DNA of 64,000 bases, taken from IMG/VR virus record IMGVR_UViG_3300032123_000052, positions 96,001 through 160,000 of that record. One strand, written 5' to 3'. Both the position numbers and the translations under genes were made by a program. This document shows positions 3,650 through 59,220 of this stretch, one piece after another; the first letter of the stretch is position 1; every line of letters begins with the position of its first letter. The notes beneath the pieces are model-generated. The model saw nothing but the letters and a program-made list of their open reading frames with translations, had not been told where the DNA came from and did no database searches. The stretch is from a virus (taxonomy: Duplodnaviria > Caudoviricetes).

Positions 3650-5440
3650 ATGATTAAATATATCCAATACGATTCGATTGATGAAACCGGTCAGCACATT
3701 ATACCGATAAACTCAATCGAACAGCTTAACAAAACTGCTACGAGCAACTACGCTCCGGAGCTGATGAAGGTTATTCTCAACCTCAATCGGAAGCCAGAGC
3801 GGTACTATGTTGTTATCAATGCTCTTGGGTCATATGAAGTTTGGGGTTCCAATCGTAATGGTGATGCCTTCCCGGAAGCAGGCCTTTCCCACAAATCATT
3901 ACGTACTGATATGAATACCGCAAATGATTATGGGTATAAAACATTTGAATATTATGCAAAATTCTATAAGCACCATGTGAATAAAGATCCAAGTCGTTCT
4001 TTTGGCGAAATAATATTTGCCCACTGGAATCCTGTGCTTCGTCGTGTTGAGTTGATTGCCGCAATCGATGTGGTGAAGGGTGCTGATATAGTAAGGTCTC
4101 TTGAAACTGGCGAGCCTGTAAGTGTTAGTATGGGTTGTCGGGTCCGGTTTGATCGCTGTAGCATTTGTCAACATAAAGCAAAAACCAGGAAGACCTACTG
4201 CAAGCATCTCAAGAATTATATGGGCCAGATAGTTACTCCCGAACTTGCCGCCTTATGGTCCAAAGAGCTTGGGAAAATAATACTTCCTGGTACTATGGTT
4301 TTCGCTTTCAATGATTATCCTCGATTTTTTGATATATCGAAAGTTTTTATAGGTGCCGACCGTACATCGTTTGTTTTGGGTAAGGCTGCATCGGCAGGCC
4401 TAGTTATAGCTTCTGTAGATTTGGCAGACGCATACGGAGTAACCGATGCGATGTTTGATAAGGCTGCCCAAGTTAAAAAAGAGGGTGACATCGATAAAGA
4501 GGTAGGGGCTTTGGGGAAAGATGATATCGATGGTACTATGAAACCTGCTGATAATGTCACTGTTTTCAGAAAAGCCCTCGATGAAAAAATGAATAAAACA
4601 ATAGCTGCCGAACCAAAACTTCCGAACGATCTTCTCGACTCAATGGCGTCAACCCACCCATTAAATAGAATATTATCTACTATATTAGGCCTTGGTATAC
4701 ACCCGAAGCCTGACGAGTTTCAAAGAATCGTTCTGATACGGGCTGGACAAAAGCCACTTGCTGATGAGTTGGAAAAGCAGGGTACTATATTTGACTATAA
4801 GAGCGATGTCGAACCACAAGATATAGATATATCAAATTATTATTATGACGACACTCTCGCTAGATCACTTTCTACTTATATCGAAAAGAGAAGTTGTTTT
4901 CCGACGTTCCTTCAATCAAGGTTGTTGGTGGTTATGGAGAAAACAGCTCAGTTTCCTCCTCCTATTGGAAAAGAAAAAAAGGAATTTAAAATCGGACCAA
5001 AGGTAGCGGTTCTTGTCGGGCTTGCGGCGCTTTATGCTGGATTGAAATTAAAGGCAAAAGGCTACGGGTCGAAACAACTTGCTGAGATTTTTACAAAGAA
5101 ACAATGGCTTCGCTCTATTATCGGTGGCGGGGTAATGTATAAAATATTTGAAGAGATAGGTAAAGCACAACACGAAAATCCGATGCTTGGTCCGGCTGTT
5201 AATTATGAAGGTGCACTCCGTGACACCAATTTTTCTGGCAAAATTGTGAAGCAATCAGCATTAAATGTATTGACCGATGCAATAGTCCTTCCAGGCGCGT
5301 ACATAATAAATTCATATAATCAAGACACATTGTATAAAACCAGTAAACTGTTTTTTCCTGAGCAAAGTATTAATAATAATTTTGCGCTGGATAATATAAA
5401 CTCAGAATTATTGAAAAAAAAGTTGTTTGAAATCAAATAA
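3650..5440 (+). CDS. prohead (maturation) protease with Cys/His cluster and long C-terminal extension
   Basis: NRNGDAF, HHVNKD (His) and VSMGC (Ser) motifs followed by CSIC...CKH; lies upstream of scaffold and capsid genes. Confidence 0.75.
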   Translation: MIKYIQYDSIDETGQHIIPINSIEQLNKTATSNYAPELMKVILNLNRKPERYYVVINALGSYEVWGSNRNGDAFPEAGLSHKSLRTDMNTANDYGYKTFEYYAKFYKHHVNKDPSRSFGEIIFAHWNPVLRRVELIAAIDVVKGADIVRSLETGEPVSVSMGCRVRFDRCSICQHKAKTRKTYCKHLKNYMGQIVTPELAALWSKELGKIILPGTMVFAFNDYPRFFDISKVFIGADRTSFVLGKAASAGLVIASVDLADAYGVTDAMFDKAAQVKKEGDIDKEVGALGKDDIDGTMKPADNVTVFRKALDEKMNKTIAAEPKLPNDLLDSMASTHPLNRILSTILGLGIHPKPDEFQRIVLIRAGQKPLADELEKQGTIFDYKSDVEPQDIDISNYYYDDTLARSLSTYIEKRSCFPTFLQSRLLVVMEKTAQFPPPIGKEKKEFKIGPKVAVLVGLAALYAGLKLKAKGYGSKQLAEIFTKKQWLRSIIGGGVMYKIFEEIGKAQHENPMLGPAVNYEGALRDTNFSGKIVKQSALNVLTDAIVLPGAYIINSYNQDTLYKTSKLFFPEQSINNNFALDNINSELLKKKLFEIK

Positions 5441-13833: not shown

Positions 13834-14860
13834 GACATTGGCTTCTAATATAACTGATTTGTCAAGAGCATTTCTTTTGATGTGGTCAACAGGTCCTAAT
13901 GATTCTAATTCTATTGCTACAGGATACCTGTGGAATGATGGCGGTACAACTAAAATAAAATTTGAACGATATGGTTCTACTCTTGATTGCAGTATTGGTT
14001 ATATGGTTGTTGAGTGTAGAAATCAAGAGTTTTCGGTACAAAGAGGAGTACAAGCATTTACTACTGCGGAAGTAACTAAAACATTAGATTTCGGTACTGC
14101 TGTAGATACTCAACGATCCCTTGTTATTGTTAACGGTAGAGGAAACATGTCTGCCGGCGATCTTAATTGCCATTGTGCTTATTTCACCGGGGAATTCACG
14201 AACGTAGTAGCTAACTCTACGGATGATATTATATTGACAAGAGGGGCATCTGCAAGTTTAACTGGTACTGCTAGATATGAAGTTGTCGAATGGTCTTCCG
14301 CATCTGGTGTTACTGTGCAAACTGGAGAAAAAGATTGTTCTGGAGATTTATCGTCTGGAGTTACTGATACAATAGACACAGCCGTAACACCTGCAAGAAC
14401 ATGGCTTTATACCACTTACCGACATGCAGTTACAGGTCTTGAACAGACCTCAATTAGAGACGTGTTGACAAACGGGACAACCATTACTTTTGATAGATAT
14501 GATGAAACGTCTTCTTATCAATCATATGGTAGGTGGTGGATTATAGAGTTTCCGGCAAATGGCGTTATAGTAGAGCACTTGACAGATGAAATTGCCAGTG
14601 CGGATGCTACAGAAGATACACCATGTACAGCAATCACCCTGGCAAACTCTTATATATGGGCTGGAAATAATGTTAACGGTACAGGCAATGCCATTCCCAG
14701 AGATAGATTGTATTGGCAATTCACCTCTACAACAAATACAAGAGCAACTCGCGTATATACTGGACAAGCCGCCCAATTAGCTGTACAGACTATAGATACT
14801 TCTGCATGGGATACATCTCCAACAGGTGGTAATCCTTGGTATGCTTATTCACAACAATAA
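13775..14860 (+). CDS. beta-rich virion surface protein with internal repeats
   Basis: Three similar units (SVQRG/TVQTG...DT..VDT.RS/RT...T.I.F.R...Y.VVE). Confidence 0.6.
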   Translation: MLYTQQSTATIASGNSSVDKTLASNITDLSRAFLLMWSTGPNDSNSIATGYLWNDGGTTKIKFERYGSTLDCSIGYMVVECRNQEFSVQRGVQAFTTAEVTKTLDFGTAVDTQRSLVIVNGRGNMSAGDLNCHCAYFTGEFTNVVANSTDDIILTRGASASLTGTARYEVVEWSSASGVTVQTGEKDCSGDLSSGVTDTIDTAVTPARTWLYTTYRHAVTGLEQTSIRDVLTNGTTITFDRYDETSSYQSYGRWWIIEFPANGVIVEHLTDEIASADATEDTPCTAITLANSYIWAGNNVNGTGNAIPRDRLYWQFTSTTNTRATRVYTGQAAQLAVQTIDTSAWDTSPTGGNPWYAYSQQ

Positions 14861-33320: not shown

Positions 33321-35003
33321 TTATCCGACACCCCTATCCAAATGCCATTCAACCAGCTTGGCTGATCTTCCCTCATGCCCTCTTTTAGAACGTATTTTCG
33401 CAACCATCCCAATCAGATTGTCCCCGGCCCGCATAAACTCTACGCACTCGTTCTCCTTTCCGATCTGGCCAGGTCCGAGCTTGAACTGTTTACCAGAATC
33501 AAGAGATCTGAACCAGATTACCCCTGCAACTTTCCCTTTAGGCCCCCATTTCAAATTGACCGATTCAACCTGCCAATCATAAGCCTCGGCTCTGGTAGTG
33601 TGTTTTCGGCCTTCGTTAATACCCTTCCCCATAGGTACACCAACAAACCCTTCAACCATATTTATGATATGCTTGAATTCAGACGCCGGAACTATTTCAG
33701 GTGGCCTAACAAAATCGCTCAGTTTAGAGAACGCCTCTTGTAATTTACGGTTATCAAAAAACTGTAGATTAGACACATCATTACTGTTCCATTTATCCAT
33801 ACGATAAACAACAAATAGGGGTAATATATCAAGAGGTCTTATCTTATCCGAATTAAGAATACCACCTGTTTCAGCGGCTGTGAGGGTTAATGGTTTGAAT
33901 GGTCTGAATATATTGAACCTTCTGTAGAATACCAATTCACCCATGCCACGAGCACTATCTTCACGCTTTATTCTATAGAGCTCTGGCAGTTTTCCGGTAT
34001 ATTGAATCCTATCACCAGTTTCGATACTTACTCTCGGAGACCAAAAAGTAGTCTCTTTGGAACCTGAACTAAAATGAACACCAGCACCATCATACTTCAA
34101 GGTCACAGTACCAGAATCAACATGGTTCAAAAAAGATTTAAGGTCTTTATCAGATTTAAGATTAAGCCGTTCGCCAAAAGACGGAGACGGCTTCTTTATC
34201 ACACCCCATGTTACTATAGGGGCTTTTTTATTATCTCCGTGGTATAGTTTGTGCAAATAGAGTAACCTATGTTTATTAAGTGTCGGGCAATACATCTTAA
34301 TTGTCTTACCATCACCATTATCAACAGACATTATCTCTACAGGCTTGTTAACTACAGTCTGCCTGGTTAACCCTGAGCCGTAGCCTTTGATTCCAGCTTC
34401 GCCAACATTCCATGATGTTTCAGCGTTCCTTATCGAATGATCAGCATTCTGTGCCATTCTGGAATTGTTCATCACCTCTTCTCGGAGAAAATTCATAATA
34501 GCCATCTTACTTTTTTCGGTAAGCTCGCCACTCTTGTTGAACTTTATATCGTTCATAATTGATTTTCCCCCGATGTTGATGATCAAGCTCAGATGGCCGA
34601 TATGGATATCCAAATGAGGATTGGTCGCATGATGAAACACAACCCTCATCCGTTTTACCACCCGCCTGTTTTGATCAATCTCTCCATCTATCCAGGTTTT
34701 ACTACTCCTGCCATTAATGTTGATAATTGGACGGCGGGTAACCTCCGTCTTTTTACAGACACGCTCTATACCTTTACCAATATTGCCAAACACAACACCC
34801 TTAATAAGACCCTTTGAAAATATTCCAACTACATCATTAATCGATTTTGCTTTATGGTATTTCTTGACAATGGATACGGCTTTAACCACCAACAGTATCC
34901 GCTTTATTTTGCATACTTTAAAAACTTTAGGCCAAGCCGGGCTTATTTCTTGATAAAGGCCCTTTCCCCTAACCAGCCCTTTCGCCAGTAGCCTCATGCT
35001 CAC
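33321..35003 (-). CDS. LigD-type 3'-phosphoesterase fused to ATP-dependent ligase
   Basis: HHATNPHLD, DH and GYGSG (PE domain); KYDG, GEL, YRMD and EGF ligase motifs; OB-like C-terminus. Confidence 0.75.
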   Translation of the reverse strand: MSMRLLAKGLVRGKGLYQEISPAWPKVFKVCKIKRILLVVKAVSIVKKYHKAKSINDVVGIFSKGLIKGVVFGNIGKGIERVCKKTEVTRRPIININGRSSKTWIDGEIDQNRRVVKRMRVVFHHATNPHLDIHIGHLSLIINIGGKSIMNDIKFNKSGELTEKSKMAIMNFLREEVMNNSRMAQNADHSIRNAETSWNVGEAGIKGYGSGLTRQTVVNKPVEIMSVDNGDGKTIKMYCPTLNKHRLLYLHKLYHGDNKKAPIVTWGVIKKPSPSFGERLNLKSDKDLKSFLNHVDSGTVTLKYDGAGVHFSSGSKETTFWSPRVSIETGDRIQYTGKLPELYRIKREDSARGMGELVFYRRFNIFRPFKPLTLTAAETGGILNSDKIRPLDILPLFVVYRMDKWNSNDVSNLQFFDNRKLQEAFSKLSDFVRPPEIVPASEFKHIINMVEGFVGVPMGKGINEGRKHTTRAEAYDWQVESVNLKWGPKGKVAGVIWFRSLDSGKQFKLGPGQIGKENECVEFMRAGDNLIGMVAKIRSKRGHEGRSAKLVEWHLDRGVG

Positions 35004-36003: not shown

Positions 36004-36077
36004 TAGCAGCGGACGGATTCGAACCATCGACCTCAAGCTTATGGGGCTCGCAAGCCCCTTGAATGGTTTCCGCAACC
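36004..36077 (-). tRNA. degenerate tRNA-Met/Ile2-like (CAT)
   Basis: Intact T arm GATGG-TTCGAAT-CCGTC; anticodon arm CGAGC-CCCATAA-GCTTG; weak acceptor stem, aberrant D arm, C33. Confidence 0.55.
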
Positions 36078-44147: not shown

Positions 44148-44918
44148 CTATTCTACATTCAGCATATGTTCGGAAATTGTATCACCAACAGTTATTGCAT
44201 TGAAACCTTTCAGCTCATGCGAAGCGATAAATGTTAATGCAGAATACAGGCCGAACAGCGTTGCCTGTTCGGTAGCAAGACGAGCGATTACATTGCCCCA
44301 TTTGCTGTGTGGAATCTTTGTATTTTGATAAGCATTGACGATATGGCCGGAATTAAGCTCAATATTGGAAAGCTCCTGAATTCGTGGAGCAACCCTTATG
44401 AGATTGTCAGCGCCGGTCGAGATATTCTCAATAGCATCATCAATCTGCCATGAATCAGCATCATTGTGATAAATAGCAAAATAACCAAACCGTTTGCGTG
44501 AAACAAACTGGTTGGTGCATGCGTAATCACAGGCAAACATTTCCATACCGAATTTTCCACTGCCGTCGTATGCATTGCGCATCATCATTCCAAGATGCAA
44601 CTGGTGGATATCACTATCCTGACCACCAACCACAACCTGGGTAATGGGTGCTTCTGTAATGAAATAATGCGCATACCTCTTACCGTCCCATAGAACTTTC
44701 AGTTCTTTCCATTCATATGGTGAGCGACTCATTATGTTGTCTCCAACATCTTTGGCAATTGAGTTTTTGATAAGCTGCCATCCCGCATGCTGAATACCAG
44801 CTAATCGCCAATCTCCATCGTCATCTTTGACTCGTACGCCTACTTTTGCGACTTCATCTCCGCCAACCTCGACGGGCTCCTGTACCACTTCCGCGAACGG
44901 ATCGCTGAACTTTGCCAT
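44148..44918 (-). CDS. DUF932/DUF945-like protein
   Basis: RNAYDGSG...ACTN motif. Confidence 0.6.
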   Translation of the reverse strand: MAKFSDPFAEVVQEPVEVGGDEVAKVGVRVKDDDGDWRLAGIQHAGWQLIKNSIAKDVGDNIMSRSPYEWKELKVLWDGKRYAHYFITEAPITQVVVGGQDSDIHQLHLGMMMRNAYDGSGKFGMEMFACDYACTNQFVSRKRFGYFAIYHNDADSWQIDDAIENISTGADNLIRVAPRIQELSNIELNSGHIVNAYQNTKIPHSKWGNVIARLATEQATLFGLYSALTFIASHELKGFNAITVGDTISEHMLNVE

Positions 44919-44959
44919 GCATAGCCTTTCTGTTAAAAATATTAATAACTAGTGTACAC

Positions 44960-44993
44960 ATTATAGTAATTCCAGAATAGTTGATTTGATAAC
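44960..44993 (-). promoter_or_regulatory. phage promoter motif copy fused to terminator T-run
   Basis: TTTTTTTTAGCT-GTTATC-N13-TGGAATTAC-TATAAT. Confidence 0.7.
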
Positions 44994-45025
44994 AGCTAAA
45001 AAAAACACAGACCACTCTGCGCTTT

Positions 45026-45559
45026 CTAACCATCTGGAATGCCTAACCAGAGCATCGTAACATCAGACAGGTTGGGTAATTTTAATATATCTTCGATCCT
45101 CATAAACAGCTGCTTGTTGTGTTTGTGGGGTTCTTTATTCTCAAGAGTTCCAATGTATTCCAATGCCTCAAAGACATGACTGTGCGTATTGACTATTACA
45201 TTGTTCTTTTTATATACAAACATTCTGTCTTTTAGAAATACAGTTTTGGTTATAATCAAACCTGTCTCTTCAAACATTTCCTTACTTATTGTTTCCTTGA
45301 GAGAACTTTCCGGCACCACTTTACCAGCAGGAATAGTCCACTTGCCGATCTTGACATGCTTCTGCATTAAAACTTCATTGTTTTTATTTTTAATAACGAC
45401 AGCAACGCCCGAATGGTCCTTCAGGTCTTCTTTGGTATACAGCGCGCTGTACGATTCTCTATGTATCATAATGACTCCAGTATTGTTACACCTCTGTTGT
45501 TTTTGGGTAAAAAAAAGCGCAATACCACTTGCGCTTCTTTCCAGAATAGTTGAAAACAT
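45026..45559 (-). CDS. Nudix hydrolase
   Basis: WTIPAGK...KEMFEETG, slightly degenerate Nudix box. Confidence 0.8.
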   Translation of the reverse strand: MFSTILERSASGIALFFTQKQQRCNNTGVIMIHRESYSALYTKEDLKDHSGVAVVIKNKNNEVLMQKHVKIGKWTIPAGKVVPESSLKETISKEMFEETGLIITKTVFLKDRMFVYKKNNVIVNTHSHVFEALEYIGTLENKEPHKHNKQLFMRIEDILKLPNLSDVTMLWLGIPDG

Positions 45560-46173
45560 TAAACCGTCGAATAATTATACACTATAGTCTTACTGTGTAC
45601 ATTTGGGTTCAACCCAGATTCTATAACAGGTTTATTTGGCTCACCAAGCAGCCTTTTCGCAACTTTTTCATAATACCTCTTATCATAATTGTTGCTTTTA
45701 CTACGAATATCCAGCCAATCTGAAACGACAGATATCGCATTGTCCTCGTCGACAGTTTTAAAGGTGTGGCTGGTAAAGGATTCGCTAAACTCTTCCCGGT
45801 TCATAAACTCAATCTCTGCACCATTAAGCACATTTTCTATCTTTTTCAGATCATCAACTGACATCGCTGACCATGGGCCGCTCATATTCGCCCCGGTACT
45901 TGTAAGCACATCGCCTCTCTCAGGATACCGCTGAAAGATACAGAATATTTCAGGATATTCTTTAGGGGCTTTCATAAAAGAAGCGTTCTGAACTACCCAC
46001 AACAAACCTGTGACAAAGAACATGCGACCATTCTGATCAATTCCCCAACACGCCTTCTTTGGCATTGTTGACCACCTGTCAAGATATCCAGTGCTTCCTG
46101 TTTGTGGGGCGTCAACCTTTGGAATATCGAGTGTATCAATTAACTTTTTTAATTCTTTAATTGTAGCACGCAT
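45559..46173 (-). CDS. hypothetical protein
   Basis: GGAGG RBS. Confidence 0.7.
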   Translation of the reverse strand: MRATIKELKKLIDTLDIPKVDAPQTGSTGYLDRWSTMPKKACWGIDQNGRMFFVTGLLWVVQNASFMKAPKEYPEIFCIFQRYPERGDVLTSTGANMSGPWSAMSVDDLKKIENVLNGAEIEFMNREEFSESFTSHTFKTVDEDNAISVVSDWLDIRSKSNNYDKRYYEKVAKRLLGEPNKPVIESGLNPNVHSKTIVYNYSTV

Positions 46174-46190
46174 ACCATCCTCCTATTAAA

Positions 46191-46397
46191 TTAATTATTT
46201 GGTTTTTTAGTTATTTGGGCTTCAGCCATATCTCTCATTTCTTTAATAATTTCATACGTTTTAATATTAGTAATAGCTTTGTCACATTTGAGCATGAGGA
46301 CACAGGTGTGACATGCGTTAAATCCATTGAGTATAAAGTTTAATGAACACACACTACTATTTGCTCCATGTTTAAACGTCATTTTCGAATCAGGCAT
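46191..46397 (-). CDS. small Cys-containing protein
   Basis: C...CHTC...C. Confidence 0.55.
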   Translation of the reverse strand: MPDSKMTFKHGANSSVCSLNFILNGFNACHTCVLMLKCDKAITNIKTYEIIKEMRDMAEAQITKKPNN

Positions 46398-46418
46398 ACA
46401 ATCTCCAGGTTAATGTTT

Positions 46419-46658
46419 TTAGTATTTCTTAATAACCTCCACATCATAATGATCAAGATATTTATCTATTAATTTGTTAACAACAAAGTTTAGGCTGAGC
46501 GGCCTTTTCAGAATTAATTTTTTAATATTTCCAGCAGAAGCTTCTGCAAGCATACCAATATTGTCAAGCTTGAATTCTTTAATAAGTTGGTTCTGTATCA
46601 TCTCACTAATCATGTTCAGGTTTTTAGAATCAATCTTTTGTTTTTCTTTGTTAAGCAT
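46419..46658 (-). CDS. hypothetical protein
   Basis: AGGAGG RBS just downstream of the tRNA. Confidence 0.65.
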   Translation of the reverse strand: MLNKEKQKIDSKNLNMISEMIQNQLIKEFKLDNIGMLAEASAGNIKKLILKRPLSLNFVVNKLIDKYLDHYDVEVIKKY

Positions 46659-46682
46659 ATACTTCCTCCTAAAATTTTATAG

Positions 46683-46755
46683 TACTTCCGGTAGGATTCG
46701 AACCTACGACCCCCTGCTTAAATGGCAGGTGCTCTACCAACTAAGCTACGGAAGT
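46683..46755 (-). tRNA. tRNA-Lys(TTT) with A33
   Basis: Full cloverleaf: ACTTCCG/CGGAAGT acceptor, AGCTTAGTTGGTAGAGC D arm, CCTGC-CATTTAA-GCAGG, GTAGG-TTCGAAT-CCTAC; CCA not encoded. Confidence 0.9.
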
Positions 46756-46882
46756 ATATAAAAGTTTAATAAACATAACCATTCTATTGTTACACAAAGG
46801 GTTGGTGGCGCCTTTCAGCAACCACCGCACCTTTCCTGTATTTTATGTATCTGTGACAATATCAATAAGACCACCATCGGCG

Positions 46883-47503
46883 TTATCGAGCATTGTTCTT
46901 CGATTTTGTGGCTTTCTTCTTGGTTGTCTTTTTCTTTGCTGTCTTTTTCACCTTGGTATTTTTCTCATCAGGATCATCGCCACCAGGCAATATCCCAGCC
47001 TGTACGAGTTCACCCTTTTTCTGCTCGAGAACCTCATCGGGAATATCCAGATTCTCTATGAATGTGGCGAGGAAGCTTTTTCCCATCTTGGCCATTATTT
47101 CAGAACGGTCCTCAACAGCATCTTCGACATAATCACTTATCGACTCGCCACAATTCGTCGATAATTCAGCCATTACATGACCGACGTTTGGTTGTTTTTC
47201 ATAAGCGTCAGTAAGCTCTTGAACTGCTTCAAAGAGTTCTATACACTTATTATAAGTGTGCTCAGCAGGGCCGGCAAGATCAGCGACTATCGTCGCAACC
47301 TCGTCAGCATTCTCGTGAAGTGTTGCTTCCATAGCATCAACACCAGCCCCCATGGCTTTGAAAATATCTGAATACATCATCCCAAATTGATTTATTATCC
47401 CAGTAAGTTCTCTGAGATTGATTTTCTGGATACGGCTTTTAACAACCTTTTTGACGATAAGTTTTTTTACTGATCCAAATAGGTTAATCATAAAATCCTC
47501 CAA
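46883..47503 (-). CDS. hypothetical protein with histone-H1-like Lys-rich tail
   Basis: Acidic helical body; KKTAKKKTTKKKATKSK C-terminus. Confidence 0.7.
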   Translation of the reverse strand: MEDFMINLFGSVKKLIVKKVVKSRIQKINLRELTGIINQFGMMYSDIFKAMGAGVDAMEATLHENADEVATIVADLAGPAEHTYNKCIELFEAVQELTDAYEKQPNVGHVMAELSTNCGESISDYVEDAVEDRSEIMAKMGKSFLATFIENLDIPDEVLEQKKGELVQAGILPGGDDPDEKNTKVKKTAKKKTTKKKATKSKNNAR

Positions 47504-47673
47504 AGATATGCGCCAAAGCGTAGCGCGTTTATAAATGAAATTCCATCAGCAATTAAACCGCCACGATTTTTCATTATCTCAATGATTTTATTATCACCGA
47601 AATTGTCATCATGATAATGGCGGCGCAAACCGTAATGATACCCCTGAAAATATTTGGTATCACTATGTTGCAT
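47488..47673 (-). CDS. hypothetical protein
   Basis: GAGG RBS. Confidence 0.5.
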   Translation of the reverse strand: MQHSDTKYFQGYHYGLRRHYHDDNFGDNKIIEIMKNRGGLIADGISFINALRFGAYLWRIL

Positions 47674-47756
47674 GATCCATTTTATACCTCATGTTAAATG
47701 TTGCATTTTACATTTCGCAAATGTCAAGCATTTTCTTTTCTGTCGGCCAGTCGTTT

Positions 47757-48137
47757 TCATAAAGGCCATTCCTGAAATAATGCTATGGAATTTGCGTAAT
47801 ATTGTGTGCCGTCATGAGTGGCACACTTTTTCAATAATGCCCATCCCCACAGACGATTTGCCTGAAAGGAATAATATGTTTTTGTTATTTGAGGGTTTGT
47901 CCCTGTCTTTTCCACGTCCTCAAAAATGAACAACATCTCCATCTGGGTTTTTATCGCTTCGTGAACAGATGGGGAAATTCTAATAAGTTTTCCCTCATTT
48001 GCTCTCTCTTTTAATGTTAATTCGATGTATTTTTCAAAATCGTCATCGTTAAGTGATTTTCTTGATTTTTTCCAGTCGCTTATCGTTGCCGCGTCGGTTC
48101 TGAGTTTCGCAAGTACTTCCAATCTTGTGTGTTTCAT
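47757..48137 (-). CDS. hypothetical protein
   Basis: AGGAG RBS. Confidence 0.7.
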   Translation of the reverse strand: MKHTRLEVLAKLRTDAATISDWKKSRKSLNDDDFEKYIELTLKERANEGKLIRISPSVHEAIKTQMEMLFIFEDVEKTGTNPQITKTYYSFQANRLWGWALLKKCATHDGTQYYANSIALFQEWPL

Positions 48138-48161
48138 TTACAATCTCCTGTTAATTGTTTT

Positions 48162-48416
48162 TTACATTTCGCAATTGCGAACACAATTATTCTTTCCGAC
48201 TCTTATTATCTGAGAACTATTTTCATATAACAGTTGAATGATATAGCTGCCCAATATTTCATCCAATGTTAATTTTTTAATGTTAACTGACTCAACCATT
48301 TCCAAAAAATCACCGTTTTTATAAACTGAAAACGTGCCTTCGTCATTTATTTTAATTTCTATCATTCTCCACCTCCTGTTAATTGTTTTCGTTTTCGCCT
48401 CTCGCCGGCCTCTCAA
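48162..48416 (-). CDS. hypothetical protein (likely start MIEIKIN)
   Basis: AGGAGG RBS before the internal Met. Confidence 0.6.
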   Translation of the reverse strand: MRGRREAKTKTINRRWRMIEIKINDEGTFSVYKNGDFLEMVESVNIKKLTLDEILGSYIIQLLYENSSQIIRVGKNNCVRNCEM

Positions 48417-48618
48417 CCTGGGGCGCTATCCTGTTTGCCGGGGATTCGCCTCGGCACGTGGTTAATTATTTAATTCGTTTTCTCCATTTTCTCTGCACGT
48501 CTCTATCCATCCAGTTGAAGAGACAATAGTCAGCAGGAATCGGATCCCCTGCATATATTTTCCGAGGTTCATTGTTTTGAATTTTTTAATATCCGTTAAT
48601 GATAATTATTTCTCTTAC

Positions 48619-48652
48619 AATATACTTATACCAGATTCCGAGACTTTCTAAC
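48619..48652 (-). promoter_or_regulatory. phage promoter motif copy
   Basis: GTTAGA-N13-TGGTATAAG-TATATT. Confidence 0.6.
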
Positions 48653-48717
48653 ACCCTGATGGCTAAAAAAAAGCTCAACTCATAGTCAAGCGACGCAACC
48701 TCTTAGCGCGTCATCAA

Positions 48718-49494
48718 TTATAGAGATAGAGCTTCTTCTGGTATACTGATGGGAAGTGTTGGTTTTTCTATCCGCACACACGGTGCGTTAATTACATCCG
48801 CAAATGATTTCATATTATTAATATCTATATCAGGACTATGCCACTGAACGGGCTTAATCATTTCTGGGGACAGAAAGGTTTTTGCAATAAATACGTTACC
48901 AAAATCCTCGAGCACAACTACACCAGACACTATGTTGAGATGGTAATGGTTCTCAATTTTTCCATATTCAAATGGAGAACCAATTATCATCATTGATAAG
49001 ACATCTACTGTGGTTGGGAAAGAGCCGGCAATTGCCTTTATCCTATCCATAATAAATTCGTACACAATAGGATCAACACGCTCTTCAAATCGCTCAAGAC
49101 AATGTTCGGTATAGAAAATATTACCACACGCTTTGTGATAATTTGCACCGAACAACCTGCCATGATCTGTAACAGTAAATACTCGATCAAGATTGGTTTT
49201 GAACTGTATGTGATAATTGCCTTTTAGTTTGAAATTAGTCATATTGACCCATTTTCCGTATTTTTTACGAATTCGTATAGCAACATATTCTTTTATTTTT
49301 TTCTCTTTACGTTTACTAATCCGTTTCTTGGCAAAGGTTTTGCCAAGCGTTTTATTACACGCCTCGCTGAAGATAAGATTCATCATCGCATCATTGTATT
49401 TCTCGAGGGAAACAGTTTCAAAGTGTTCGTTCAACAGGGCAAGATAAACCTGCTCCTGCTCTTTATTTCTTGTGATAGAGCTTTTTCTTTCCAT
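48718..49494 (-). CDS. hypothetical protein
   Basis: 258 aa; YTEHCLERFEER motif. Confidence 0.7.
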   Translation of the reverse strand: MERKSSITRNKEQEQVYLALLNEHFETVSLEKYNDAMMNLIFSEACNKTLGKTFAKKRISKRKEKKIKEYVAIRIRKKYGKWVNMTNFKLKGNYHIQFKTNLDRVFTVTDHGRLFGANYHKACGNIFYTEHCLERFEERVDPIVYEFIMDRIKAIAGSFPTTVDVLSMMIIGSPFEYGKIENHYHLNIVSGVVVLEDFGNVFIAKTFLSPEMIKPVQWHSPDIDINNMKSFADVINAPCVRIEKPTLPISIPEEALSL

Positions 49495-57591: not shown

Positions 57592-58113
57592 TTAAGATTT
57601 GAGAGCTGGCTCTTCCCCATTAGCCTTTACACCATTATCAGGTGCAAGGAAATTGCCTGCGCCAACGGATGCGCCGCTTGGCAGATGAATGAATTCGACA
57701 CATCCATCTATCTTTTCATCCAGGGCTAATGGTAATAACCAATTGAGGCAATAAACGCAGGAACCGTCGATACAGAATCCTATATCTCCACGGCCTCGAA
57801 TTATACTTTTAACTATTGTTTCTGTTTCCACAGTATGAGCATCAAAATATGCTTTACGGTCTGATGCTGTGTAGAAAATCACTTTAAAACTTTTCATATC
57901 TGTTATAATTGCGAATCTTTTCCAATTTTCATAATGAACACCAGTTTCTTCTTTAAATTCTCTGATCATAGCGACGCGCTCGTGCTCGCCTTTTTCTACT
58001 TTTCCACCAACACCATTGAGCATGCCTGCTTGCCACTCAGGTTTTTGTTTTCTAATGAGGATGACACTACTCATTCGCTGGTTAAACATGAAACCACATA
58101 CGTATTTTTGCAT
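57592..58113 (-). CDS. Nudix hydrolase (MutT-like)
   Basis: Canonical GGKVEKGE...REFKEETG box. Confidence 0.9.
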   Translation of the reverse strand: MQKYVCGFMFNQRMSSVILIRKQKPEWQAGMLNGVGGKVEKGEHERVAMIREFKEETGVHYENWKRFAIITDMKSFKVIFYTASDRKAYFDAHTVETETIVKSIIRGRGDIGFCIDGSCVYCLNWLLPLALDEKIDGCVEFIHLPSGASVGAGNFLAPDNGVKANGEEPALKS

Positions 58114-58245
58114 ATTTAATATAGTATTCTTTCTTCAAAAATCTTCTTCACCAAATTATAATAATGTTTTCATAATATTTTAAAAAAGCGAGAAGGTATT
58201 TAGTGTGTATCCTCCTCGCTTTTGAAATGATATTACCCTAACCCT

Positions 58246-59220
58246 TTATTTTCGTCTCCATTTATCATTTATATATTCGTACAAAACCCTATCTTGATGG
58301 CTGAGTGTTGGTGCTCCGGATACTATCTCAACAACTTTATAGCCTATCTGTGGCATAGGCATGAGATATTTATCACCATTAACACTGGCGAGGGATGTTT
58401 CAATATCCAGAAAGTGGTCACGTATCTCAACATTAACATTCCCTTGCCCTTTGACCTTTTCAAATGATACGGTGAAGCCTGTCATTTCATACATCTGGCT
58501 GTAATCAGGAGGCGCTTCGCTTGGAATAACCTGTGCACCTTCAGGTTTTCCTCCTGAGTTAAACTGATTTCCAGTAGTCCTGTTTCTGGCTATTCCACCC
58601 TCTTGACGCTGGTTATTTCGTGCATCCTGCACCGACTGGGAGTCAAATCCAGGTTTTTTGGATTGAGTGAGCCTCTGCTCTTCAATCACATTATCCATAT
58701 TAATACAAACCTCTGGAGTTATGGGTTTCTCTTCAGACTTTCCAGGCATACTTCCTTTAATTATTGTTCCATCTTCATCATTTTTTACCGGGATGTCAAT
58801 TTGTTCGAGTTCTGCAATTGCACCTTCAAGACTTTGGTTCGTCTCTTCGGCAACTGTCTCGTTGGTACCATTGGCAATTTCATCCATAGGTGTTTTTTCA
58901 ACAACCTGTTCTTCATCATCATCACCTGGAGGCTTCGGGGCTGAATATTCAACTCCATCAGTTGGGAGTTCGACATCAGATTCATCAATCTCTTCATTGC
59001 CGCCAATTTCTAAATCCGGACCTTGCACAGTTTCCCCTGGTGTATTTTCACTACCAGTGTTATCATCAGTCTCTTCTAAAGACGGCCCGCCTGTCTGCGG
59101 CGTATATTCACCCTCACCATCAAGGTGCGCTTCACCAGTGTTTAAATCTTGATCATTATTGTTCAAGACTACTCCTTTTAAGAAATTGTTCAATATCAAT
59201 CCATACGCCATGCATTTCAT
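58246..59220 (-). CDS. acidic low-complexity protein
   Basis: Glu/Asp/Pro-rich, 324 aa. Confidence 0.65.
   Translation of the reverse strand: MKCMAYGLILNNFLKGVVLNNNDQDLNTGEAHLDGEGEYTPQTGGPSLEETDDNTGSENTPGETVQGPDLEIGGNEEIDESDVELPTDGVEYSAPKPPGDDDEEQVVEKTPMDEIANGTNETVAEETNQSLEGAIAELEQIDIPVKNDEDGTIIKGSMPGKSEEKPITPEVCINMDNVIEEQRLTQSKKPGFDSQSVQDARNNQRQEGGIARNRTTGNQFNSGGKPEGAQVIPSEAPPDYSQMYEMTGFTVSFEKVKGQGNVNVEIRDHFLDIETSLASVNGDKYLMPMPQIGYKVVEIVSGAPTLSHQDRVLYEYINDKWRRK

Follow-up and report, generated by a model that had tools for sequence, protein, structure and literature searches.

A phage tRNA-Lys(UUU) gene with adenine in place of U33: an isolated and unconserved variant, no more frequent than background

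The uridine located just before the anticodon (U33) is almost universal in tRNAs, and a phage gene that encodes a tRNA-Lys(UUU) with A at this position therefore raises the question of whether the replacement is a device or an accident. We address this question for an uncultured phage (Duplodnaviria; Caudoviricetes) in which the gene lies in a window of 64,000 nucleotides, i.e., the whole stretch of DNA analyzed and the reference for all positions given below unless another genome is named. This window comprises bases 96001-160000 of the 208,085-bp IMG/VR virus record IMGVR_UViG_3300032123_000052, which is 100% complete according to CheckV. A first-pass annotation of this sequence had described a clean tRNA-Lys(UUU) cloverleaf with A33, and had suggested a replacement tRNA resistant to anticodon nucleases.

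The gene is located on the minus strand at 46683..46755, is 73 nt long, has A73 as the discriminator base, and does not encode the CCA end. It is called as tRNA-Lys(ttt) by ARAGORN (46682-46755, minus strand), and Infernal alignment of 46683-46755 (minus strand) with the Rfam tRNA family RF00005 gives 68.5 bits and an E value of 7.9e-13, where the gathering score is 29. Direct reading of the sequence, together with this alignment, places the anticodon loop CAUUUAA at 46718..46724 (minus strand). This is a 7-nt loop, C32-A33-U34-U35-U36-A37-A38, in which the purine A37 is present and U33 is missing; A33 corresponds to the plus-strand T at 46723, and the anticodon U34-U36 to 46722-46720. The acceptor stem (ACUUCCG/CGGAAGU), the D stem (GCUU/GAGC, with the D loop AGUUGGUA), the anticodon stem (CCUGC/GCAGG), and the T arm (GUAGG-UUCGAAU-CCUAC), which follows a variable loop of GGGUC, contain only standard pairs (21 of 21, i.e., 20 Watson-Crick and one G-U). 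The canonical bases U8, A14, G15-C48, G18, G19, A21, G53, U54, U55, C56, A58, and C61 are kept, and both the sequence and the Infernal alignment contain the partners for the tertiary contacts U8-A14, G15-C48, G18/G19 with U55/C56, U54-A58, and G53-C61. A33 is the sole deviation of this gene from a textbook tRNA-Lys, and we found no other sign of decay within it. The cloverleaf described by the first-pass annotation is thus borne out by the Rfam score, by ARAGORN, and by the pairing of every stem. Nearest-neighbor energy calculations, which ignore tertiary contacts and modifications, return a non-cloverleaf hairpin as the minimum-energy fold for all four position-33 variants; the D region and the anticodon arm are paired with each other in this long hairpin, which gains one pair (U17-A33) when position 33 is A, and the gap between hairpin and cloverleaf is 4.6 kcal/mol for A33 vs 2.2 for U33, a difference to which we give little weight.

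The bases that serve as identity elements for LysRS (U34, U35, U36, and A73) are all there, and a comparison with the loop masked showed that the tRNAs nearest to the body of the phage tRNA are almost all tRNA-Lys(UUU). Judged by this comparison, the body is of the Lys type and agrees with its anticodon. This distinguishes the gene from the natural non-U33 tRNAs described in cells, the Candida tRNA-Ser(CAG) with G33 and the Streptomyces tRNA-ProX with A33, in which the replacement is thought to damp decoding (PMC11415595). Both of these are expressed, and both resemble the phage gene in that position 33 is a purine and the rest of the molecule has the shape of a tRNA. However, they are dual-identity mistranslating tRNAs, with a mismatch between body and anticodon in addition to A34, A15-A48, and G21, whereas the phage gene is Lys throughout; since its body and anticodon are both Lys, we rejected its assignment to this class.

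One account of a single unusual base is that the true base is U33, and that A33 is an error of sequencing or assembly. The variant is indeed one base in one genome, and the sporadic A33 calls that we found in MAGs (see below) could share the same cause. However, a Logan contig (L292, from run SRR1971619; 140,796 nt) that we located by exact matches to neighboring proteins matches the window at 100% identity over 6158 bp, a stretch that contains the entire tRNA and the A33 base. This contig is part of a separately built assembly, which may rest on the same reads, and because it is identical at A33 an assembler artefact is unlikely. In addition, the A33 site lies in the context TTTAAATGG, without a long homopolymer, and we consider it very improbable that the base is wrong.

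The tRNA-Lys gene is part of a variable accessory island of 3.8 kb (44948..48718, minus strand), defined by synteny, which contains, in addition to the tRNA, a NUDIX hydrolase (45026-45559; family match) and seven orphan ORFs. The island is flanked by conserved genes at 44148-44918 (encoding 256 aa) and 48718-49494, and the counterpart gap in related phages (L003 and L004 in the synteny comparison) is 1.6-1.8 kb long and without a tRNA. On one side of the tRNA, an orphan ORF of 79 aa (46419..46658, minus strand) with an AGGAGG Shine-Dalgarno sequence starts with an ATG located 24 nt past the tRNA 3′ end, and has no match in Pfam or PHROG; upstream, on the same strand, is an orphan ORF of 206 aa with a Lys-rich tail (46883..47503, minus strand) with no family match and no relatives in IMG/VR. 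Searches of the island genes against Pfam, PHROGs, and the ESM Atlas found nothing beyond the NUDIX hydrolase. Since the tRNA shares the strand of its neighbors and ends 24 nt before the start of the 79-aa ORF, the two are probably co-transcribed, with the tRNA then processed from the transcript; a scan for promoters and terminators around the tRNA-Lys gene gave none above shuffled background.

AAA is the top codon of this phage (53.7 per 1000 codons, and 71% of Lys codons). Searches of the phage genome for Rnl2, RtcB, and a CCA-adding enzyme found none of these; Rnl1 was likewise not found, in a weak search where the control also found nothing. A PrrC/RloC-like (AAA_13) gene was not found in the phage genome, and the ORF of 560 aa at 33321-35003 (minus strand) has no Pfam match at E <= 0.01.

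The anticodon loop also contains the letters UUA, and a shifted reading, with U35-U36-A37 acting as the anticodon of an ochre suppressor, had been raised in the first-pass annotation as possible but less likely; we considered with it the promotion of frameshifting or readthrough by the tRNA. Suppressor tRNAs do exist in this clade, as the two relatives described below carry amber-type tRNAs with a CUA anticodon. Nevertheless, pairing of the stem CCUGC/GCAGG leaves a 7-nt loop in which positions 34-36 are UUU, and this is the only well-paired register. At the level of the genome, standard-code stop-to-stop ORFs of at least 100 codons cover 89.7% of the sequence, and all 22 pairs of long (at least 120 aa) ORFs that lie in the same frame and are separated by a single stop have an in-frame start codon no more than 16 codons past that stop, with a visible Shine-Dalgarno sequence at the downstream start in most of these 22 junctions. 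Furthermore, TAA ends 148 of the 225 predicted genes (66%), so that a suppressor would impair two in every three proteins. Recoding of TAA, TAG, or TGA in this phage was rejected on the basis of the standard-ORF coverage and of the start codons after stops, and we judge the shifted reading to be extremely improbable, which agrees with the low rank that it had been given.

Using the conserved 256-aa gene at 44148-44918, we identified two relatives of the phage, IMGVR_UViG_3300029267_005544 (G001; 186 kb, 72% identity) and IMGVR_UViG_3300033145_003080 (G002; 149 kb, 64% identity), and the tRNA-Lys gene is absent from both. Each of them carries a tRNA with a CUA anticodon, and G001 also encodes Met and Glu tRNAs, all of these with U33. 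The CUA tRNAs are of the amber-suppressor type and are adjoined by an odd tRNA-like gene with an encoded CCA, which has a 6-nt anticodon loop in G002 and an 80-nt form in G001 (the pairs are located at 14316-14395 and 14635-14706 of G001, and at 57824-57897 and 58238-58308 of G002; L005, L006, L008, and L011); neither the CUA tRNA nor the CCA-encoding gene is present in the phage with A33. A quick tblastn test for TAG recoding in G001 and G002 gave an output dominated by antisense shadow ORFs.

The whole genome of the A33 phage contains two matches to the tRNA model, the tRNA-Lys gene and a Met(CAU)-type tRNA-like gene at 36004..36077 (minus strand), whose anticodon loop CCCAUAA has C33 and whose score of 26.2 bits is below the Rfam threshold. 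This second gene occupies the position of the canonical tRNA-Met(CAU) of G001, with which it can be aligned (L003:18845-18921). Comparison of the two demonstrated that the anticodon and T stems remain paired through compensated changes and that the loops are almost unchanged; the acceptor, anticodon, and T arms are kept, and the D arm is not recognizable and cannot be aligned. From this pattern, the gene looks to be selected for its shape rather than simply decaying. The earlier statement that both tRNAs of this phage alter position 33 is therefore literally true (A33 in one, C33 in the other, where the tRNAs of the relatives have U33), but the second of them is a sub-threshold match that lacks a D arm.

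In order to place A33 against the background of other tRNA genes, we carried out a census of position 33 in several collections. A search of IMG/VR with the exact anticodon arm and its flanks, allowing any base at position 33, found no other match, and the same pattern found 105 matches in JGI/ENA metagenomes, where position 33 is U in 103, C in 2, and A in none. In these collections A33 is private to our gene, the other tRNAs with the same anticodon arm having U33 or C33. Save for position 33, some metagenome tRNA-Lys genes share an identical 41-nt core with the phage tRNA, and a search of genome contigs with the 3′ half of the tRNA gave no matches. The Arg and Ala tRNAs on the contigs with the nearest core (sample Ga0172379) are of the GNN type, which hints at a possible archaeal origin of these contigs; we make no host inference from them, because their whole acceptor stem differs from that of the phage tRNA.

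To count Lys(UUU) genes in IMG/VR for each base at position 33, we used a pattern in which the loop C-N-TTTAA is linked with the common T loop and a fully paired 5-bp stem is required. This census returned at least 68 genes with U33, 26 with C33 (18 distinct), one other with A33, and one with G33. Among phage Lys tRNAs matching this pattern, C33 outnumbers A33 about 20-fold, and A33 is no more frequent than G33. Apart from our gene, the single viral A33 Lys gene found with the pattern is in IMGVR_UViG_3300039438_000057 (L024). At 3883-4113 (minus strand) of that locus, three or more tRNA-like genes are arranged in tandem. Their anticodon loops are 9, 7 (the A33 Lys gene), and about 14 nt long, and none of their D loops has G18/G19; the members of this array are possibly tRNA mimics, rather than an ordinary tRNA context.

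A sample of 658 distinct phage tRNAs, made up of tRNAs neighboring U33 seeds (IMG/VR loci L043-L159), contains U at position 33 in 643 cases, C in 14, G in one, and A in none. The 15 non-U33 tRNAs, nearly all of them C33, cluster by phage (10 same-locus pairs; permutation P = 0.0013). For example, four C33 tRNAs are found in L086, two C33 and one G33 in L048, and two C33 in L139. This clustering makes C33 look like a lineage trait of some phages rather than scattered error. The C33 tRNAs, which amount to about 2% of the sample, resemble our gene in that they are otherwise canonical phage genes without U33; however, C33 keeps a pyrimidine and recurs, whereas A33 is a transversion seen once elsewhere in IMG/VR.

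A stricter pattern applied to cellular genomes (185,579 prokaryotic species, one genome each) found about 8 canonical A33 tRNA-Lys(UUU) genes. One copy (L270) is in tandem with another tRNA-Lys(UUU), the position 33 of which was not read, and one copy is in a genome (G003) that also holds a U33 copy. Most of the non-tRNA matches of the A33 pattern are accounted for by a YrlA-like element: 12 bacterial loci (L265, L268, L272-L274, L276-L278, L284-L286, and L288) share the element '..GAATGC..GGACTA-CATTTAA..GGTTCGAATCC', which includes CATTTAA, and of the three that we compared with Rfam, L268 and L272 are YrlA (Y RNA-like, RF02553), with none above threshold in L286. By these counts, both cells and phages have A33 at a very low background frequency, and the non-U33 base that recurs in phages is C33.

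The position of the variant invites comparison with tRNA-Lys nucleases and the phage tRNAs that counter them. PrrC cuts 3′ of U33, which agrees with the cleavage site 5′ of the wobble base given in the first-pass annotation, and RloC excises the wobble base (PMC2610378). Phage tRNA-Lys does counter defenses of the PARIS type, as that annotation held, and also those of the PrrC type: a phage tRNA-Lys, e.g., that of SP15, rescues phages from PrrC170 (PMC11555353), and the T5 tRNA-Lys counters the AriB nuclease of PARIS (PMC11464382, PMC12409363), with PARIS rescue involving phage tRNA-Lys together with tRNA-Thr and tRNA-Asn (PMC12409363). Our gene resembles those of T5 and SP15 in being a Lys(UUU) isoacceptor carried by a large phage, and in having, close to a nuclease site, a sequence unlike that of typical cellular tRNA-Lys. 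A33 is next to the PrrC cut, and the isoacceptor would fit the targets of PrrC, RloC, and AriB. AriB, however, cuts at C40|A41, and T5 escapes it via U39A and A41C plus features of the tRNA body, and not via position 33 (PMC12409363); at position 39, the A33 tRNA has G in place of the U that is critical for AriB in E. coli. Escape in T5 and SP15 depends on positions 39/41, on the tRNA body, or on sheer supply, and in neither on position 33, unlike the change seen here. Compared with the nuclease-insensitive replacement tRNAs of T5 (against AriB), SP15 (against PrrC170), and mycobacteriophages (against VapC-MazF), our gene does not present a cut-site variant kept across relatives. The proposal of van den Berg et al. 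(2023) that phage tRNAs evade nucleases by anticodon-loop mutations (PMC10264068) describes the same kind of departure, in the anticodon loop of a phage tRNA and adjoining a known cleavage site; their text does not mention position 33, and it draws on patterns that recur over many mycobacteriophages, vs the single occurrence of A33.

Published effects of position 33 on cleavage differ between nucleases. With the yeast gamma-toxin, cleavage falls by about 85% with U33G and is unaffected by U33C, and a U33A loop is cut better (PMC2275089); with human EDN, U33G halves the efficiency and C33 also lowers cleavage (bioRxiv 10.1101/815803). We found no published PrrC test of position 33 in the literature. 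As for translation, U33A is reported to be much less functional in yeast (PMC6125640), U33A and U33C mimic a poorly decoding tRNA-Gln (PMC3664417), and bacterial t6A37 formation is independent of the base at position 33 (PMC13276492).

It is possible, though we find it doubtful, that A33 was selected because it protects the tRNA from a host anticodon nuclease acting at U33|U34, such as a HEPN enzyme of the PrrC/RloC type, collateral Cas13a activity, or another, with the tRNA still decoding AAA well enough for phage translation. The PrrC cut 3′ of U33, the rescue of phages by tRNA-Lys, the escape mutations already proposed for phage anticodon loops, and the reduced EDN cleavage of U33G or C33 substrates are all consistent with this idea. 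So are the location of the gene in an accessory island, a frequent place of counter-defense genes, the failure to find an Rnl1 (weak search), Rnl2, or RtcB repair route in this phage, and the rank of AAA as top codon, which means that loss of tRNA-Lys would hurt; the C33 of the second tRNA-like gene and the clustering of non-U33 tRNAs by phage are of slight help. However, A33 is not conserved, the gene being unique to one genome among those searched, it is not enriched in phages (0/658, and one other case in IMG/VR vs 26 with C33), and it is sporadic in cellular genomes too. Furthermore, the AriB determinants are at positions 39-41, U33A improves the gamma-toxin substrate and is costly for decoding, and we found no PrrC data on position 33 in the literature. 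The comparison therefore does not support A33 as a resistance device, plausible as this is in principle. The two non-U33 genes of this phage and the clustering by phage hint at lineage-specific pressure or tolerance, rather than random hits, and a wider version of the same idea, that replacement of U33 (A33 in the Lys gene, C33 in the Met-like gene) gives lineage-specific invisibility to nucleases with decoding retained, C33 being the common and A33 the rare solution, seems to us slightly less probable again.

Alternatively, the gene may no longer serve decoding, its tRNA shape acting as a decoy or competitive inhibitor of an enzyme that binds tRNA-Lys, or as a processing signal for RNase P/RNase Z that would separate the upstream and downstream orphan mRNAs, so that the U-turn is no longer needed. 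The gene does lie between two ORFs on the same strand, 24 nt ahead of the next start codon; the only other viral A33 Lys gene is in a mimic-like tandem array; the second tRNA-like gene has lost its D arm and keeps its acceptor, anticodon, and T arms; and competition by overexpressed viral tRNAs has been raised as a possibility for AriB (PMC12409363). On the other hand, every element of a decoder except U33 is intact in the tRNA-Lys (G18/G19, the UUU anticodon, A37, the C32-A38 pair, and A73), more drift would be expected in the loop of a signal that acts by shape only, and the comparison with other genomes gives the idea no support, so we regard a role outside decoding as unlikely.

Our preferred reading, to which we assign a probability of about one half, is that this is an ordinary accessory phage tRNA-Lys(UUU) with a private U33A change, which is probably negative for decoding. 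On this reading, host RNase P and 3′ processing enzymes would cut the tRNA from the co-transcript, CCA addition would be left to the host, and charging to host LysRS, as expected from the presence of UUU and A73. The tRNA would then supply a decoder for AAA, the usual role of a lone phage tRNA-Lys, and the extra copy would buffer the phage if the tRNA-Lys of the host were depleted or attacked. A33 would most likely weaken the U-turn and lower decoding efficiency, and we infer that the base has no adaptive value of its own; U33A would not be a conserved design but a change that is tolerated, neutral to mildly harmful, or of recent date, with which decay of the gene may have begun. Several points count against this reading: U33 is missing from both tRNA-like genes of the phage, non-U33 tRNAs cluster by phage, the rest of the gene is free of decay, and a harmful change present as the consensus in two assemblies needs either dispensability of the tRNA or some benefit.

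If A33 does protect a working tRNA-Lys from enzymes of the PrrC type, it would add a simple determinant to the short list of escape routes, and bacterial translation would be seen to work with a purine at the U-turn. If the replacement of U33 proved to be a lineage-specific means of evading nucleases, position 33 would be a so far unrecognized battleground of tRNA warfare between phages and their hosts. As found, A33 is one isolated case that is not conserved and is no more frequent than background. Of more use is a by-product of the analysis, the census, in which C33 makes up about 2% of phage tRNAs and is clustered by phage, with A33 and G33 near-absent, and which points work on position 33 towards C33.
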